Sequence record: OL615013
Source of the DNA: Shigella phage ChubbyThor
Strand: one strand, 5' to 3'
DNA: 64,000 bases
The notes under the pieces are model-generated. The model made no database searches. It saw only the letters and a list, made by a program, of their open reading frames with translations, and was not told the DNA's origin. Positions 6,288 through 53,781 of the stretch are shown here, piece after piece. A program made the translations under genes and the position numbers. Position 1 is the stretch's first letter. Every line of letters starts with the position of its first letter.

Positions 6288-7055
6288 ATGGCACCCCGCG
6301 CATATCGTTTCAGTCTCACCGCCCCGCAGATTGAGCAATTGCTCCTTTCTATCAATGATGCTATCAAGTCAGAAGATATCATCTATGATTATGCTGCAGG
6401 TGGGACTGTTGGGCAAGTCGCAGCAGCGTCTGCCGTCAAGAACATGTGGTTGAAGCTCAACGAGATGGTAACAGGCCAAGGCCTCAAAGATGCCATCAAC
6501 GCTGCAGAAGACAGCAACGTGTTCACCGACTATTATAAGTCTTTACTGGATCGCGAAGGCTGGAAATTTATTGGGTCTCCGGCAGATGAACTTGAGCGAG
6601 GCGACATCGACACCGCGAACTTCACGGGTGGTGAGGTCATTCTACTTCAGAAGAACGCTTCAGGCAACCCCGAATTCCAATACTGGAAGCGTACCCCGGT
6701 TGCTGGGGGTGATCCGACCTTCGCCTGGGCTTCGGTCTATGAAGGGAACTCCAACGACTCCAGCATCGAAATCCCGGTGATTGGCACCAGCGTCCTCAAA
6801 GACATTCCCAAGGCTCTCTTCCATATGGTGGAGTTCCGGGTTCATGTCTATGATGAAACGCTGGGGCACTGGCAAGATACAGATGGCAAGGTGGGGTATC
6901 GTGGCGAGGATCTGTTCTACAGCACGTATAACCATGTGCAGACCAAACCGCTCGCCACCATTGACTTCAGTCAAGACACAGATAGCATGACAGTCTCTGT
7001 GACTTCCCTGGAGCCGAATGTCAAATGCCATCTGTCGTTTATCGCTGGTTACTAA
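6288..7055 (+). CDS. hypothetical protein (255 aa), plus-strand gene
   Basis: ATG at 6288 with AGAGGA SD 8 nt upstream; divergent from RNase H gene; track ORF 6129..7055 trimmed to this ATG. Confidence 0.55.
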   Translation: MAPRAYRFSLTAPQIEQLLLSINDAIKSEDIIYDYAAGGTVGQVAAASAVKNMWLKLNEMVTGQGLKDAINAAEDSNVFTDYYKSLLDREGWKFIGSPADELERGDIDTANFTGGEVILLQKNASGNPEFQYWKRTPVAGGDPTFAWASVYEGNSNDSSIEIPVIGTSVLKDIPKALFHMVEFRVHVYDETLGHWQDTDGKVGYRGEDLFYSTYNHVQTKPLATIDFSQDTDSMTVSVTSLEPNVKCHLSFIAGY

Positions 7056-30141: not shown

Positions 30142-30519
30142 ATGAAACAGTTCGTAGGATTATATGCGGTCGGATGCAGTAAGCCAGACGCCATCCTCAC
30201 CGCAGGGCAATTTGTCACAGGCACCCCAGTTTATCTGGCGCAGCTGGCGTCAGACAAGAACTTACCATCGGAGCCGCGATTTGTCCCTCTGGGTTTGATG
30301 ACAGGCCTGAAAGTTGGTCTGTATGTCGGTGTGGTGACGTTTGAAAACGGCGTCGAAGCGAAAGTTCTGCCATTCAAATTGGGCAGCGAACAAATGCTGA
30401 AGGATACGATCAGTGAACACCTGAACACACAATGTCTGGCTTCTCTGGACAAATTGTTCGGCGCAGTATCTGATGAAGGCGAGGCCACCCCCGCCTATGT
30501 GAATCAAGATCAGTCGTGA
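30142..30519 (+). CDS. hypothetical protein (125 aa), plus-strand gene
   Basis: ATG with GAGAG SD; protein-like sequence; converges on uvsW with 10-nt overlap. Confidence 0.5.
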   Translation: MKQFVGLYAVGCSKPDAILTAGQFVTGTPVYLAQLASDKNLPSEPRFVPLGLMTGLKVGLYVGVVTFENGVEAKVLPFKLGSEQMLKDTISEHLNTQCLASLDKLFGAVSDEGEATPAYVNQDQS

Positions 30520-34538: not shown

Positions 34539-35180
34539 ATGCGCGGGATCAGTAGATTGTTGTTGGCATGCGCGATGCTCTTACTTACGAGCTGTCGCAT
34601 CTTTGTCACGCCAATAATTTCTGTTTCCGAACTCTGGAACCCAGAAGTACGCACCGTACCTGTGACGTTGTCGGCCAGTGTTCCTACTTGTAACAAGGGT
34701 ATGCTGGACATCATCGTGCAAGAGTTCCAGACCTTCCAGAAGCTCGTACCTTTAGGTTGCTTCGAGGAGAACACGAGCACCCTCAAGCCTTACTGGAAGA
34801 CCACGATTCCCCTCCTGCGGCGTGGCGATGAAGGGAAGATTCCATACCTATCAGCAAGTATTTATTACTCTCAGAACAACAGCATCATCATCACTTTTAA
34901 TCCATCATTCTACGCCAAGCTGAAGCAACACATGGTTGGGCGACTGAGTGAAACATCGGATATAATCGTGACGTTCAAAATCATGAATGACTCAGATAAA
35001 CCAGTACGAATCGCAACTCAGGGTGTGTTTGTCAACAACGATGCTGTTGGGAATGAGATGAACATCTTCGAAGTGAAGCCAGAGGGGACGATCTGGATCA
35101 GGCTGAGCAACGTCGGGGTGAACTCCCTACTGTTGGATGGCATCGAACCAGTGGGAGTTCTTCCGGCTCGGGAGCGCTGA
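34539..35180 (+). CDS. predicted lipoprotein (213 aa), plus-strand gene
   Basis: Track start is TTG; first ATG at 34539 gives MRGISRLLLACAMLLLTSC with lipobox LTSC; converges on 35182..35910. Confidence 0.45.
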   Translation: MRGISRLLLACAMLLLTSCRIFVTPIISVSELWNPEVRTVPVTLSASVPTCNKGMLDIIVQEFQTFQKLVPLGCFEENTSTLKPYWKTTIPLLRRGDEGKIPYLSASIYYSQNNSIIITFNPSFYAKLKQHMVGRLSETSDIIVTFKIMNDSDKPVRIATQGVFVNNDAVGNEMNIFEVKPEGTIWIRLSNVGVNSLLLDGIEPVGVLPARER

Positions 35181-42911: not shown

Positions 42912-43217
42912 TTAACTCAGTCCCATCATTTTGCGGAACTTCATCGCTTTCTTCTTACGACGCTCAATCTTGCGACTGTAGCCCATACCCATGCGTTTCT
43001 TGGCTCGGATTGCCTTGCGGTTGCCCAGTTTGCGGGTACGGCGCTCACTGGCGACCATAACCTCACAACGAGAACCATCCGCAGACAGTTTGAAACCAGG
43101 AGCGCACTGCAGGCGACGGCGGCGTTTACCTTTTGCATTCACCTTGTCAATGACTTTCTGCTCGTCCATGCGGGAAGCCAGGAAATCAGCGAATGTTGCA
43201 ACTTCTTCGATTTCCAT
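42912..43217 (-). CDS. 68: prohead core protein (T4 gp68-like), highly basic
   Basis: Position between gp67 and gp21; Arg/Lys-rich. Confidence 0.55.
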   Translation of the reverse strand: MEIEEVATFADFLASRMDEQKVIDKVNAKGKRRRRLQCAPGFKLSADGSRCEVMVASERRTRKLGNRKAIRAKKRMGMGYSRKIERRKKKAMKFRKMMGLS

Positions 43218-43227
43218 GATGCTCTCC

Positions 43228-43395
43228 TTATTCGTCTTGCGCAGGAGACATGTCTTGACTCAGAGAGTTCATGACATATGCGGTGCCCTGTTGAACGAGT
43301 TCCTGGGCGCGAGCAGACAGTTCAGTTTGACATTCAGCAACAGCAGCATCGGTGTCACCAGCGATGATTGCTTTTACCAGATCGATAGCGGCCAT
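43228..43395 (-). CDS. 67: prohead core protein (T4 gp67-like)
   Basis: Small protein between portal and gp68; track start is GTG, moved to ATG at 43393-43395 with AGAGGA SD. Confidence 0.5.
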   Translation of the reverse strand: MAAIDLVKAIIAGDTDAAVAECQTELSARAQELVQQGTAYVMNSLSQDMSPAQDE

Positions 43396-43432
43396 GTTCA
43401 TATCCTCTAAATGTTTTCTATACTTAGTCGAA

Positions 43433-48485: not shown

Positions 48486-50705
48486 TCACCGTCTCAGCCA
48501 TTCTTCCATGGACATGCCAGAGCGTTCGTCATACACCTGAACTCCACCAAACCCTGGGATACTCTCTATAGAGTGAGGATCTGGTGTTGAAAGCACACCC
48601 CCGAAAGGTAACATCTGAGATTCTTCCATCGCAGATAATCTTCCTCTCATGTCCACAGAGATACTTGAGTTTGTGAGATCACTAAACCATTCTTGTTTCA
48701 CCGCCCATGCATAGAGCACGAGAGGCATCACACAGTCATCATGACAACCATCATCGGCTTCATACCTTGTCCCAGTCCATACGAATGTACTGAGTTCATC
48801 TATCGTGTCTTGGTCATCAACCACCAGCATCTCACGTTCGATAAGCGCCTTGAGGTTAGCACAACCATTCGAACGCACTTTCTTGTTCGTGTTGATGCCA
48901 GGCTCAGGGCGGCGGCCACCAATTCGTTTGCCAGTACCCTTCGCATCTGTGGTAGTGAAGATGATCTCCGGGTATTCAATTTCCTGATATAGAATTGTGA
49001 TCACCTGGCCACCCACGTCGTTGTTGGTTTCAACCAACATCGGACACGTGCCATACTTCTCGCCCATGTCGGCGATAGTGTATGCATACATCATTGGAGG
49101 TATCGTGTTGTTCCGATACTTGGCTGCAATCTTGTGAGGATAGTCTGTGATATCCAAGATGGTCAGAACAGAGTAATCCCCCTCCACACCTTTGCCTGTA
49201 TCGGCGATACCCATGTAGATGCGCTTCGGATCGTAATCGTGGTAGATCTTGGTGAACTCGTTCGGCTCCTGATAGAGTTTCGAGGTCATCTTGTCTAGAC
49301 ACTTGGCAGGTATCAGTGATCCTACAGAACCACGGAACTTGATACCGAATTCCTGATCGAAACGTGCATCGCCCAGCTTCGCCCTCTGTTTGGATTCCCA
49401 GTTCGGATCCTTGGTGTATGTTGGAACACGATACCATGGAACCTCTGTGAGTTTGAAGTCGTTGTATTGAGGATGCTCTGGGTTCGCCTTGGTGACGATG
49501 TCGTAGAACAACCCGCGCTGACCTTTCGGCGTACTGGTCAGGATACAACGTGATGTCTCTGCAGATGCAATCGCTGGGAATGTGGACTCCCAGAATTCAA
49601 AGTCATTTTCGATGAACGCCACTTCGTCTACATACAGAAGCGATACAGATCGACCACGGATGGAGTCAGAGGATGTCGCATAAGCATAGATCTTCGACCC
49701 GTTTTCGAATTCAATCAACGTGGAGCCGAACTTCTCACAACCCTGTTGGAGGAAGAATGGCAAATCCTGGTATGCCTTGCGGATACGGTCTAGGATTTCA
49801 ATCGCCTGCTTCTCTTTGTTCGCCAGTACCGCGATCTCTTTGTCAGAGTGGAACATCGCATACCAGAGCAGGAACGCTGCTACGACTGTCGTGTTGTGGC
49901 TGAGGAAGCCGTTGGTGTAGTAGCGCTGATCACTAGATTTCACCTGCAGGTCAAACATGTGATGCATCTCACCAGTCTGCCATACCTCAACGACTTCTTC
50001 TAGACCTTCTTCGGTCATTAGCCGTGAACCAGCAACCAGATCTTTAGCAAACACTTCCTTCATGTTCTGATTGAAGAACATGTGATCATCGGCCACGTTG
50101 ATACGACGACCACTGGAAGTGATGACAACGTACTCTTGGTACAGCTTAGTCTTGTGCGCGGCGATGACAGGCACCCAGCCTTTGTCACAGCGAACAAAAT
50201 AACGCTTGCCGAAGCGGCTGTCTACGAACTTATCGTGTTTGCCAAAGGCATTCAGTGGCTCGGCGTGATTTGGTCCCTCGAAGCGGCTGTGAAGCTCCTC
50301 GATGGTGACTTTAAACTCTTCTTGGCTGAACGTATCGTAAACCTCGACGATGCTGTCACCCTTCACACACTTACCAGACTGACGCGCCTGAACCACGGCG
50401 TTGAAGCGGTGATCCTGGAAGTCATGGAACAGCTGCTTCTGATAATCATGCATATCGAAGAGGATGAAGCCCTTATCGATGGTCGTGATCTTGTAGTAGT
50501 TGGCGGCGAAGTAATGAGCGTCCATCGCGCACTCAACGAACTCCGATTCTTGATCGTCGGTCAACATCAACTCTACACGAGGAGCACGCACAGACGGCTT
50601 GCGCATGAACGTCTGGTCCATACGCAATCTGACATCATCAATCTTGAATCCCGTCTTTATCGGGGCATATTCAATATCACGCTTCTGATACGCCATCGTC
50701 TTCAC
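48486..50705 (-). CDS. 17: terminase large subunit (T4 gp17-like) interrupted by a mini-intein
   Basis: ARQSGK then 159-aa insert then TTVVAAFLLWY, versus T4 Walker A SRQLGKTTVVAIFLAHF; C-terminal nuclease region present. Confidence 0.85.
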   Translation of the reverse strand: MKTMAYQKRDIEYAPIKTGFKIDDVRLRMDQTFMRKPSVRAPRVELMLTDDQESEFVECAMDAHYFAANYYKITTIDKGFILFDMHDYQKQLFHDFQDHRFNAVVQARQSGKCVKGDSIVEVYDTFSQEEFKVTIEELHSRFEGPNHAEPLNAFGKHDKFVDSRFGKRYFVRCDKGWVPVIAAHKTKLYQEYVVITSSGRRINVADDHMFFNQNMKEVFAKDLVAGSRLMTEEGLEEVVEVWQTGEMHHMFDLQVKSSDQRYYTNGFLSHNTTVVAAFLLWYAMFHSDKEIAVLANKEKQAIEILDRIRKAYQDLPFFLQQGCEKFGSTLIEFENGSKIYAYATSSDSIRGRSVSLLYVDEVAFIENDFEFWESTFPAIASAETSRCILTSTPKGQRGLFYDIVTKANPEHPQYNDFKLTEVPWYRVPTYTKDPNWESKQRAKLGDARFDQEFGIKFRGSVGSLIPAKCLDKMTSKLYQEPNEFTKIYHDYDPKRIYMGIADTGKGVEGDYSVLTILDITDYPHKIAAKYRNNTIPPMMYAYTIADMGEKYGTCPMLVETNNDVGGQVITILYQEIEYPEIIFTTTDAKGTGKRIGGRRPEPGINTNKKVRSNGCANLKALIEREMLVVDDQDTIDELSTFVWTGTRYEADDGCHDDCVMPLVLYAWAVKQEWFSDLTNSSISVDMRGRLSAMEESQMLPFGGVLSTPDPHSIESIPGFGGVQVYDERSGMSMEEWLRR
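49893..50369 (-). mobile_element. mini-intein (about 159 aa, no homing-endonuclease domain) in the terminase Walker A P-loop
   Basis: Insert starts with Cys (codon 50367-50369) right after ARQSGK, ends MFDLQVKSSDQRYYTNGFLSHN (block F/G-like, terminal His-Asn, codons ending 49893), followed by Thr +1. Confidence 0.75.
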
Positions 50706-52078: not shown

Positions 52079-52729
52079 TTATTCTCCAAAGTCGATCTTC
52101 ATCTTGTCCACTGCAAGCCCCTTCTCAAGCACATCCGCCAAAGCATTGTCGGTCTGCAGAGAAGAATCCTTGTACACGTCCGGTTCGTTCTCTTCGTCCA
52201 AGATGGACAGACGTTTGTCGATATCGTCGATCTCCGGAACGCCTGTATCGAAGTTTTCGTTGCCGTACTGGAACAACGTGCACGGCAGAGAGAACGTATA
52301 CCATTTGCCAAATTGCATGAAGTCTTCATCGTTGTTCGGGTTGTTGACCTTGAAGATCTTGTTCGCCAGGGGCAGGTAGATCAGGTCACCTTCCTGAGGT
52401 TGTTGTTCAATCCCAACACCGTTGCCTATCACCTCAGCAAAGCGGCGGCGCGAGATAGAGAACGTCACCTCATCCTGTAGATTAATACCCCCGAACTTCT
52501 CCCACATCTGGGTGTTGAAGCCCTGGTAATCCTGCATGTAAACTTCGATGTCGAACGCTTGGTCGAATCGATGGTTTGCATCGTTGGTGACTGGGAATTT
52601 TTCAACGATGGAACGTGGTATATACTTGACGTCTATCCCACGCAACTGAATCATTTCTTGCACCAAATCTTCAATCAGCTTCTGTGTGCCTTGGTGATTG
52701 GTGGCGTTGAAATATTTTGAAGTGGCCAT
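52079..52729 (-). CDS. 14: neck protein (T4 gp14-like)
   Basis: Position between gp13 and gp15; assignment by synteny only. Confidence 0.55.
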   Translation of the reverse strand: MATSKYFNATNHQGTQKLIEDLVQEMIQLRGIDVKYIPRSIVEKFPVTNDANHRFDQAFDIEVYMQDYQGFNTQMWEKFGGINLQDEVTFSISRRRFAEVIGNGVGIEQQPQEGDLIYLPLANKIFKVNNPNNDEDFMQFGKWYTFSLPCTLFQYGNENFDTGVPEIDDIDKRLSILDEENEPDVYKDSSLQTDNALADVLEKGLAVDKMKIDFGE

Positions 52730-52752
52730 ATCGATACCCTCAATTTTGAAGG

Positions 52753-52759
52753 TATTTAG
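52753..52759 (-). promoter_or_regulatory. CTAAATA late-promoter-like motif upstream of gp14
   Basis: minus-sense CGACTAAATACC about 24 nt upstream of ATG 52729. Confidence 0.4.
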
Positions 52760-52788
52760 TCGAAGTTTATTCTTTTGAGGAATAACTC

Positions 52789-53001
52789 ATGCAAGTGGAA
52801 GACATCAAAGAAGTTCGCAGCGGTCGTCGCGTCCGAATCATCTGTGTGGATGCCAAGATTGGAGGCGGTGATTACGACATCGTCGGTCTGGTGAAGGAAG
52901 TGGATGGCACAGACTTCATTGAGTGGTGGAACTCCAAAGACAAGACCGAAGACGGCCTGCTGCGTGGTAGTGGCAACGGAAACCTGGATTTGAAAATCTA
53001 A
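52789..53001 (+). CDS. small hypothetical protein (70 aa), plus-strand gene inside the late block
   Basis: ATG with GAGGAA SD 6 nt upstream, followed by terminator hairpin at about 53005. Confidence 0.5.
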   Translation: MQVEDIKEVRSGRRVRIICVDAKIGGGDYDIVGLVKEVDGTDFIEWWNSKDKTEDGLLRGSGNGNLDLKI

Positions 53002-53004
53002 AAG

Positions 53005-53026
53005 AAGGGCGGGGGAACCCGCCTTT
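53005..53026. terminator. bidirectional terminator between convergent genes
   Basis: GGGCGGG / CCCGCC stem, loop GGAA, U-rich flanks on both strands. Confidence 0.55.
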
Positions 53027-53028
53027 CC

Positions 53029-53781
53029 TTATCCCATATAGAAGTCAATCGGGTATTGCTGGCCAGTACGAAGTTCTTCCTCTAAACGCTCGATCTCCGC
53101 TTCAGCCTCGCTGAACATAGTATCACCATCCAGCTCAATACCGCCAGGGAGACGGATGCCTCTTGCCTTCTTCAGCACCTCTGCCCAACGGCGTTTTACC
53201 AGAGCTGTTGCATACGCCTTCAGCCACATGTCATTCCATGCTTCTTCGTTCCCTTCTACCTCGGGGTCAATGTTCTGATAACACTTGAACGCCAAAGCCT
53301 CGTCCTTTGTCAGGGCGAATTGAGGGTAGAGTTTGCGCTGGAATTTCTTGTACACGAAGGTGCGCTTCACGTTCAGCACACTGGTGATGTCGGACAGGCG
53401 CTGCTGCATTGAGACATAATCGATCAGGCGGATAGACACCAGCGCTGACTTCGGCACCAACATAGCCTGCGCCATTTGCCACTGAGGGGTTGCCCAGTTA
53501 CCGATAGATTCAATTGGTGGTCCTGGAATGACTTCGGTGACGTCGTCGATATCTTTCGGGAATTCGATGTAGCCCTTCGTGATAGTGTCGTCATCAACGA
53601 CATGGACGAAGAACGCATCCTGGCTACCGTCGCGGTGATACTCCCAGAATTTCTGTAGAGCGTCATCGACAGCGTCGGACACCTGTGATGGGTCGAGGTT
53701 GATCTGAATTACGGGTGCCCCCAATTTCTTGAGGATGTAATTCATAAACCCCTTGCGGTCTCTGATAGAATTAACGGCCAT
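53029..53781 (-). CDS. 13: neck protein (T4 gp13-like)
   Basis: N-terminal ILKKLGAPVIQINLDPSQV resembles T4 gp13 ILRRLGAPIINVELTPDQI; track start is GTG, moved to ATG at 53779-53781. Confidence 0.7.
   Translation of the reverse strand: MAVNSIRDRKGFMNYILKKLGAPVIQINLDPSQVSDAVDDALQKFWEYHRDGSQDAFFVHVVDDDTITKGYIEFPKDIDDVTEVIPGPPIESIGNWATPQWQMAQAMLVPKSALVSIRLIDYVSMQQRLSDITSVLNVKRTFVYKKFQRKLYPQFALTKDEALAFKCYQNIDPEVEGNEEAWNDMWLKAYATALVKRRWAEVLKKARGIRLPGGIELDGDTMFSEAEAEIERLEEELRTGQQYPIDFYMG

Follow-up and report, generated by a model that had tools for sequence, protein, structure and literature searches.

A conserved plus-strand gene between the minus-strand neck genes gp14 and gp13 of Shigella phage ChubbyThor

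The genes for the neck proteins gp14 and gp13 of Shigella phage ChubbyThor are neighbours on the minus strand, and the gap between them holds a short open reading frame (ORF) that reads in the opposite direction. Is this ORF a gene? If so, how would it be expressed from the plus strand, amid late genes that are read from the minus strand, and does its place between two structural genes say anything about the role of its product? These questions are considered here for a stretch of 64,000 nt from sequence record OL615013, referred to below as the window, and for the corresponding loci of related phages. A preliminary description of the same stretch had seen in the ORF an independently transcribed insert belonging to the morphogenesis module, preceded by a well-placed Shine-Dalgarno (SD) site and followed by its own terminator.

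The reading frame and its neighbours

The segment 52000-54200 of the window shares 99.0% identity with Shigella phage Ag3 (phiSboM-AG3; Ackermannviridae, Agtrevirus) and matches 276 phage records, nearly all of them from Salmonella, Klebsiella, Escherichia, Dickeya, and related ViI-like phages. Locally, the minus strand carries, in this order, the gene for a large structural protein, orf204, orf203, gp13, gp14, gp15, TerS, and TerL, with the gp14, gp13, gp15, and TerS assignments being confirmed by Pfam and PHROG. The gap between gp14 and gp13 was earlier put at 60 nt, which is inaccurate: it measures 299 nt, of which 213 nt are taken up by the ORF, with 59 nt separating the divergent start codons of gp14 and the ORF. 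The convergent stop codons of the ORF and gp13 are 27 nt apart. The coordinates of the features discussed below are collected in Table 1.

Table 1. Features at the gp14-gp13 gap and related motifs. Positions refer to the window, except those with an L number, which refer to loci of related phages.
Feature	Position	Strand	Remarks
70-aa ORF	52789..53001	+	Ag3 orf00201, ViI CBW38033, LIMEstone1 ORF153; PHROG 4466
SD site GAGGAA	52777..52782	+	6 nt before the ATG; no variation across genera
gp14, neck protein, head closure Hc2	52079..52729	-	Pfam T4_neck-protein, E=2e-26; divergent from the ORF
gp13, neck protein, head-tail adaptor Ad2	53029..53781	-	PHROG 211; convergent with the ORF; start codon as in the Ag3 annotation
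GC-rich hairpin, candidate bidirectional intrinsic terminator	53004..53027	both	10-bp stem, GGAA loop; in the gap between the convergent stop codons
Late-promoter-like motif CTAAATAC	52752..52759	-	22 nt upstream of the gp14 start codon; invariant across genera
CTAAATA[CT]	3' ends at 443, 32050, 35944, 42224, 42580, 52759, 59271, 63008, 63898	-	
TATAAATA	6245	+	Sole plus-strand copy in the window; 43 nt before the plus-strand gene 6288-7055
P1, candidate sigma-70-type promoter	52599..52626	+	TTTTCA-16-TATACT, 9/12; antisense within the gp14 coding sequence
P2, candidate sigma-70-type promoter	52626..52654	+	TTGACG-17-AATCAT, 9/12; antisense within the gp14 coding sequence
CapR/T5orf172 gene	L002 2289-2996 (LIMEstone1 ORF152); L020 1253-1969; also in L024 and L025		

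The statement that the whole late block is encoded on the minus strand holds in the vicinity of the ORF, i.e., from Ag3 orf174 to at least orf206 with the exception of orf201. Further to the left, the window contains other conserved plus-strand genes set among minus-strand genes: 6288-7055 (PHROG 3833, with TATAAATA upstream), 30142-30519 (PHROG 4255, with a TATAAT-containing region upstream), and 34539-35180 (PHROG 3832 and DUF7424). The plus-strand ORF 42991-43410 (139 aa, between the prohead protease and portal genes) was rejected as spurious, having no PHROG or Pfam match; the corresponding stretch of Ag3 is annotated with two small minus-strand genes, orf189 (a gp68-like prohead core protein) and orf190. 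A separate observation concerns the large terminase gene (48486-50705, minus strand), which appears to carry an intein: the ortholog of phage Marshall is annotated with an 'intein from Cys110 to Asn268', and the terminase of the window reads ...GKC VKGD... and ...FLSHN T... at the places matching the Marshall intein.

The ORF comprises an ATG start and 70 codons and encodes an acidic protein of 7.8 kDa (pI 4.8) whose sequence includes the peptides VRIICVDAK and EVDGTDFIEWWNSK. This protein matches PHROG 4466 over its entire length (E=5e-35; all 70 residues aligned to all 70 profile positions), and a tblastn search with it returned 288 phage records, with at least 80% of the query covered in 275 of them. 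The ORF is likewise intact in all of the 19 IMG/VR loci retrieved, in which gp13 and gp14 were located by protein motif. It lies between gp14 and gp13, on the opposite strand, in Ag3, KpS110, Marshall, LIMEstone1, and the IMG/VR loci, and this placement is fixed in essentially all enterobacterial Ackermannviridae.

Amino-acid identity of the ORF product between genera is at least 55%, with a conserved core formed by the N-terminal 47 residues (VEDIKE.R.G.RVRIIC.DAKI..G.Y..VGL.K..D..DFIEWW), while the C-terminal 20 residues are variable. The dN/dS ratio is 0.09-0.20 where it is measurable, synonymous sites being saturated between genera, versus 0.02-0.07 for gp13 and gp14; the protein thus evolves about three times faster than its two neighbours, yet is clearly constrained. 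In addition, the stretch 'TTGAGGAAT', which contains the SD site, shows no variation among Agtrevirus, Taipeivirus, Kuttervirus, and Limestonevirus. On the strength of these comparisons, the ORF qualifies as a genuine conserved phage gene under purifying selection. The claims of the preliminary description that a 70-aa plus-strand gene lies between the neck genes and that its GAGGAA is correctly spaced are therefore borne out, as is the expectation that relatives would keep the gene in the same gp14-gp13 slot.

The base composition of the ORF (GC 0.51, GC3 0.61) is like that of gp14 and gp13 (GC 0.48-0.51, GC3 0.63-0.64), so the ORF is best seen as an old, long-standing resident of the locus. 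A recent horizontal acquisition was rejected for the same reason and because the divergence of the gene follows the genera.

The antisense gene is not new to the literature, in which it has been annotated and commented upon for genomes of this phage family. Its orthologs Ag3 orf00201 (ACO94404.1), ViI CBW38033, LIMEstone1 ORF153, and Marshall_46 all have 70 aa, occupy the same place between gp14 and gp13 on the same strands, share the SD site and the bidirectional hairpin, and show no material difference from the ORF studied here; each is annotated as a 'hypothetical protein'. In the GenBank record of Ag3 (FJ373894), where orf00201 appears as a 'hypothetical phage protein', a rho-independent terminator is placed on each strand at the hairpin, and the Marshall record has both a ribosome site and a terminator annotated. 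The Ag3 paper lists orf201 in its Table S1 (70 aa, 7,795 Da, pI 4.8, with a homolog in ViI) and the two terminators in its Table S2, i.e., Torf201 on the plus strand (-15.7 kcal/mol) and Torf202 on the minus strand (-11.9) (PMC3121705).

Transcription signals on the two strands

The hairpin begins 2 nt past the stop codon of the ORF and finishes 1 nt short of that of gp13. Its 10-bp stem and 4-nt loop have a folding energy of -19.6 kcal/mol on the plus strand and -17.2 kcal/mol on the minus strand. The structure is conserved: pairing is kept in 96% of cells across 11 diverse sequences while the loop varies freely, one stem pair has gone from G-C to C-G in five of the 11 (a compensatory change), and the observed score was reached by none of 500 shuffles and by no slid register. 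The hairpin had been described as U-flanked on both strands. This applies well to the minus strand, where the tail CUUCUUUUAG (given as CTTCTTTTAG in the terminator scan) is a good U-tract, and less so to the plus strand, whose tail UUUCCUUAU (also written TTTCCTTAT) is weaker; the scan lists the hairpin of the window on the minus strand only, and that of a Taipeivirus locus (L012) on both strands. The proposal that the hairpin also closes gp13 transcripts is supported, with Ag3 being annotated with terminators on both strands.

Whose terminator this is can be judged from Vibrio phage K364, a distantly related phage whose genes come in the same order. The gp13-gp14 gap of K364 measures 81 nt and holds a terminator (L036 4918-4945), then CTAAATAT, then the gp14 ribosome site, and no ORF. 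Since a terminator is present in this ORF-less outgroup, the hairpin at 53004-53027 is most simply read as the gp13 terminator, which the ORF would use from the opposite side; a hairpin does lie at the end of the ORF, as first described, but is better taken as borrowed than as the ORF's own. As the K364 gap combines a terminator with a late-promoter-like motif, the seam between gp13 and gp14 exists without the ORF, and the ORF fills exactly the space between terminator and late promoter. This arrangement argues for an insertion of the ORF at the seam, the alternative being a loss in the Vibrio lineage, and the earlier use of the word insert is to that extent upheld.

Some relatives carry a further gene at this place, a CapR/T5orf172 gene of 235-238 aa that lies between gp14 and the ORF and is co-oriented with the latter. 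Its product has two CapR-homology domains and a T5orf172/MUG113 (GIY-YIG-like) domain. Limestonevirus and some Kutterviruses have this gene, which most relatives lack. In the LIMEstone1 paper, ORF152 is one of the two 'hypothetical proteins' of the insertion, and it does not appear among the homing-endonuclease entries examined in Table 1 of that paper. LIMEstone1 also retains a relic of the old 5' end of gp14 (TTTTGAAGTGGCCATATC) at about L002 2990-3010. A recent spread of this cassette between Limestonevirus and Kuttervirus was considered and rejected, the cassette being 72% identical between them, like its flanks.

On the gp14 side of the seam lies the motif CTAAATAC, of which the window contains seven copies, all of them on the minus strand, versus 0.81 expected by chance. 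The wider form CTAAATA[CT] has nine occurrences in the window, again on the minus strand only, and several of these are located 19-34 nt upstream of late-gene start codons. The Ag3 paper reports three late promoters, none of which corresponds to the CTAAATA[CT] sites found here (PMC3121705). From its distribution, CTAAATA[CT] looks like the real late-promoter core of this phage group. The gp14 leader is invariant across genera together with CTAAATAC, and the position of the motif upstream of gp14 therefore suggests that gp14 is served by a late promoter of its own. On the plus strand, the interval 52300-53100 contains no TATAAATA or CTAAATA-type motif within one mismatch; with no late motif facing it, the ORF does not look like a gp55-type late gene.

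Where plus-strand transcription would start is less clear-cut. A promoter within the 59-nt spacer was rejected: the best sigma-70 match there scores 8/12 and would place the start site inside the SD site, and the spacer contains no late motif. Two sigma-70-type candidates, P1 and P2, are found further upstream, inside gp14. The preliminary description had asked for an upstream plus-strand promoter, and the outcome of the search is thus divided, with nothing convincing in the spacer and sigma-70-like candidates within the neighbouring gene. The insertion of the endonuclease-like gene between gp14 and the ORF, in the orientation of the latter, fits a plus-strand unit with its start farther upstream. 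For orf201, the Ag3 paper gives no promoter (PMC3121705), and no Ackermannviridae transcriptome or transcript data for the ORF family were found in the literature searched.

P1 and P2 occur at homologous positions in Agtrevirus, Kuttervirus, Taipeivirus, and Limestonevirus. P1 is present in all five ORF-bearing loci scanned, and the P2 homologue of Kuttervirus and Taipeivirus scores 10/12 (TTGACG-17-TATCAT). In ORF-less K364, the one outgroup genome compared, TTGACG is kept (it is formed by the same GIDVK codons) and both -10 partners are missing. Both candidates overlap conserved gp14 codons (EMI and GIDVKYIP), and their conservation may be a mere by-product of coding constraint on gp14. Synonymous sites in gp14 codons 1-80 (52490-52729) are invariant in 15 of 58 cases, as against four of 92 in the rest of the gene (Fisher p=2e-4). 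As proof of an embedded promoter, this is suggestive and not decisive, since gp13 and gp15 have similar patches; across genera, for instance, 15 of 37 synonymous sites are invariant in gp13 codons 201-240 (about 53060-53180). The synonymous invariance that flanks the ORF might stem from signals embedded in the sequence, from recombination around the island, or from codon preference.

The protein, its family, and its possible role

The ORF product is predicted to be a small single-domain SH3/Tudor-like beta-barrel, the AlphaFold2 model (built with 20 orthologs; mean pLDDT 85) displaying four main strands arranged in a small barrel. A Foldseek search with this model returned nothing significant from the PDB, and its structural matches in BFVD are uncharacterised phage proteins only. 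Several Tudor/SH3-like domains were compared with it (the CarD N-terminal domain, the UvrD/PcrA C-terminal domain, the Mfd RID, and the NusG KOW), and similarity to RNA-polymerase-binding domains of this type (CarD RID and similar) was not clearly above the small-barrel background. Against PDB sequences, the family profile picked up only noise, for example antibody light chains with E values above 0.1, and neither the ORF nor the region had a match in Pfam (in a copy without PF26890), NCBIfam, or Rfam, an STnc250 hit of 19.7 bits (gathering score 42) being sub-threshold and treated as chance.

The family itself is large. A profile search of 1.84 billion representative proteins identified 61 relatives, which define a module of about 55-60 residues (roughly TRDGRxVRIxCxD...YPIVGL...W..DG...DL) that is present in two or three tandem copies in some of them. 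The tandem-module proteins (P0026, P0027, P0029, P0035, P0051, and others) have 140-300 aa and come from metagenomes. With a wider profile, 1,528 clusters were obtained at E<=0.001, many of them made of proteins of 110-125 aa with precomputed matches, some weak, to PF26890 (Phage_HP1_YO09). These matches on some members are the only functional annotation in the family. The founding member of PF26890, orf9 of Haemophilus phage HP1, an early-operon gene directly upstream of rep, shows the same loose pattern; its score with the family profile, E=0.11 in a 13-sequence search, is not significant, and any link between the ORF product and PF26890 would run through intermediates only.

More can be learned from the places in which homologs are found. 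In Yersinia phage GN1, the homolog is flanked by the genes for DNA ligase and topoisomerase III; a metagenomic phage contig has it between DNA polymerase A and a 5'-3' exonuclease, and that phage also has a T3 1.05-like gene. Another homolog lies in a temperate-phage region, where an integrase gene, a NUDIX gene, and genes resembling P22 Y8K6 and Tad2 are nearby, and that of Vibrio phage 1.031.O is part of a run of small same-strand genes. The homolog of Vibrio phage 150E35-1 (L031 4001-4363; 120 aa, 59% identity) is likewise among small same-strand genes, downstream of a sigma-70-family gene; its label, 'putative neck protein', is unsupported by this context and is probably a carry-over error. 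These homologs of unrelated phages are thus in early, replication, or accessory regions, and none of them is in a neck module. K364 and Vibrio phage 1.255.O both have distant homologs (31-35% identity), which lie elsewhere than between gp13 and gp14.

Virion composition bears on the same point. Published mass spectrometry of LIMEstone1 virions identified 39 proteins, including ORF151 (gp14) and ORF154 (gp13); ORF152 and ORF153 are absent from them. Proteins as small as 7.8 kDa readily escape detection in virion mass spectrometry, and the sensitivity of this result for ORF153 is accordingly limited. The role in morphogenesis that was at first suggested for the gene is nonetheless unsupported, given that the ortholog is absent from the virion list and that homologs occupy early, replication, and accessory regions.

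The explanation that we prefer as a whole, and to which we would give somewhat more than even weight, is that the ORF is a non-structural accessory gene lodged at a terminator/late-promoter seam and expressed independently of the late programme. It would have settled in reversed orientation at the boundary of two late units, one consisting of gp13 and its terminator and the other of the late promoter and gp14. Late transcripts through gp13 would end at the hairpin (53004-53027), and transcription of gp14-gp17 would restart at the CTAAATAC late promoter (52752-52759). The ORF would be transcribed from the other strand and translated by means of GAGGAA, with its transcript ending at the same hairpin, which, being shared, would also keep antisense read-through out of gp13. 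Production of the protein would be independent of the gp55 programme and most likely driven by host-type sigma-70 promoters in the 5' part of gp14, and we infer that the protein binds a host or phage partner and does not build the neck.

A more specific and decidedly more tentative reading would make the protein an early host-takeover or anti-defence binder, hidden in the neck module because the seam is a safe landing site, with the other members of the family of more than 1,500 clusters being binders as well. In a weaker variant of this reading, the early antisense transcript would also time the expression of gp14.

It is unlikely, in our estimation, that the ORF encodes a neck-associated or assembly factor, i.e., a protein made late that would decorate the gp13/gp14 collar or act as its chaperone and whose position would reflect functional linkage. 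The gp13-gp14 position is invariant across genera (about 275-288 genomes), small proteins often escape virion mass spectrometry, and one Vibrio phage homolog does bear the label 'putative neck protein'. However, the gene so labelled comes after a sigma-factor gene and is one of several small genes in a row, and K364 and 1.255.O have gp13 and gp14 without an ORF between them, their distant homolog being elsewhere. Homologs also occur in other types of phages (temperate with an integrase, or with DNA polymerase A and a T3 1.05-like gene), the ortholog was undetected in the LIMEstone1 virion, and the ORF is on the opposite strand, without a late motif.

Slightly less probable again is a device acting at the RNA level, in which early antisense transcription from inside gp14 would damp or time the expression of gp14-gp17 and the ORF would be secondary. 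A transcript from P1 or P2 would indeed run antisense to gp14 over its first 100-130 nt and also cover its SD site and late promoter, and the unusual invariance of synonymous sites in gp14 codons 1-80 (15/58 versus 4/92) would fit such a function. The gp13 and gp15 controls have similar patches of synonymous conservation, however, and the ORF has been kept even where the endonuclease-like gene shifts the geometry by about 780 nt. Purifying selection on the protein, with synonymous sites being saturated, further indicates that a coding function is maintained. Last, the idea that the gap is terminator and promoter only, with a fortuitous reading frame, has the small size of the ORF and the lack of a Pfam or NCBIfam match in its favour, but is refuted by the conservation data: a full-length PHROG match, an intact frame in 19 of 19 IMG/VR loci and at least 80% of the query in 275 of 288 records, a dN/dS of about 0.1-0.2, a conserved SD site, more than 1,500 related clusters, and a confidently predicted fold.

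Comparison with known inserts

Morons, described for HK97 and lambda-like phages, are independent promoter-gene-terminator units found within late operons. The ORF resembles them in being a small single gene, bounded by a terminator and wedged between conserved late structural genes, which is missing from the corresponding site of the K364 outgroup and has homologs scattered in other phages. Unlike morons, it is on the opposite strand, has the base composition of its neighbours, and has no promoter identified in the flanking spacer. Its host phage is virulent, which leaves no room for lysogenic expression, and its terminator probably belongs to the resident operon instead of having been brought in. 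Of the features by which morons are recognized, a downstream terminator and absence from the outgroup site are thus found here and a deviant composition is not; for this last reason, and because the promoter candidates are inside gp14, the ORF is not classed as a moron, although it would seem to work like a moron-type insert.

Homing endonucleases of T4-like phages (seg/mob, or F-LimVIII and F-LimIX of LIMEstone1) offer a second comparison, as they are also extra genes amid structural genes, sometimes on the opposite strand, and as the CapR/T5orf172 gene occupies the very slot of the ORF in some relatives. In contrast to them, the ORF product has no nuclease domain, and the gene is universal in the enterobacterial lineage and not sporadic.

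As the ORF is an already annotated 'hypothetical protein' of ViI-like phages, these results change little. Their value is modest, in that they show a virulent phage tolerating an extra gene inside an essential late operon, where it appears to sit at an existing terminator/promoter seam and to borrow the terminator from the opposite direction; later on, this seam also took up a homing-endonuclease-like gene. Should the protein turn out to be an early host-directed or anti-defence factor, a large family of small phage proteins that is at present unannotated would acquire a function.

The distant homologs of K364 and 1.255.O provide a parallel. In each phage, the homolog (88-94 aa) forms a pair with an overlapping second ORF of about 155 aa (L007 2453-3174 in K364, L008 2456-3186 in 1.255.O). 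The pair is on the opposite strand, adjoins a gp25-like baseplate gene, and ends at a strong hairpin of 14-15 bp located between convergent genes; in the terminator scan, the K364 hairpin is reported on both strands and that of 1.255.O on the plus strand alone. Judged by this layout, the arrangement is the same kind of antisense lodging, at a different seam.
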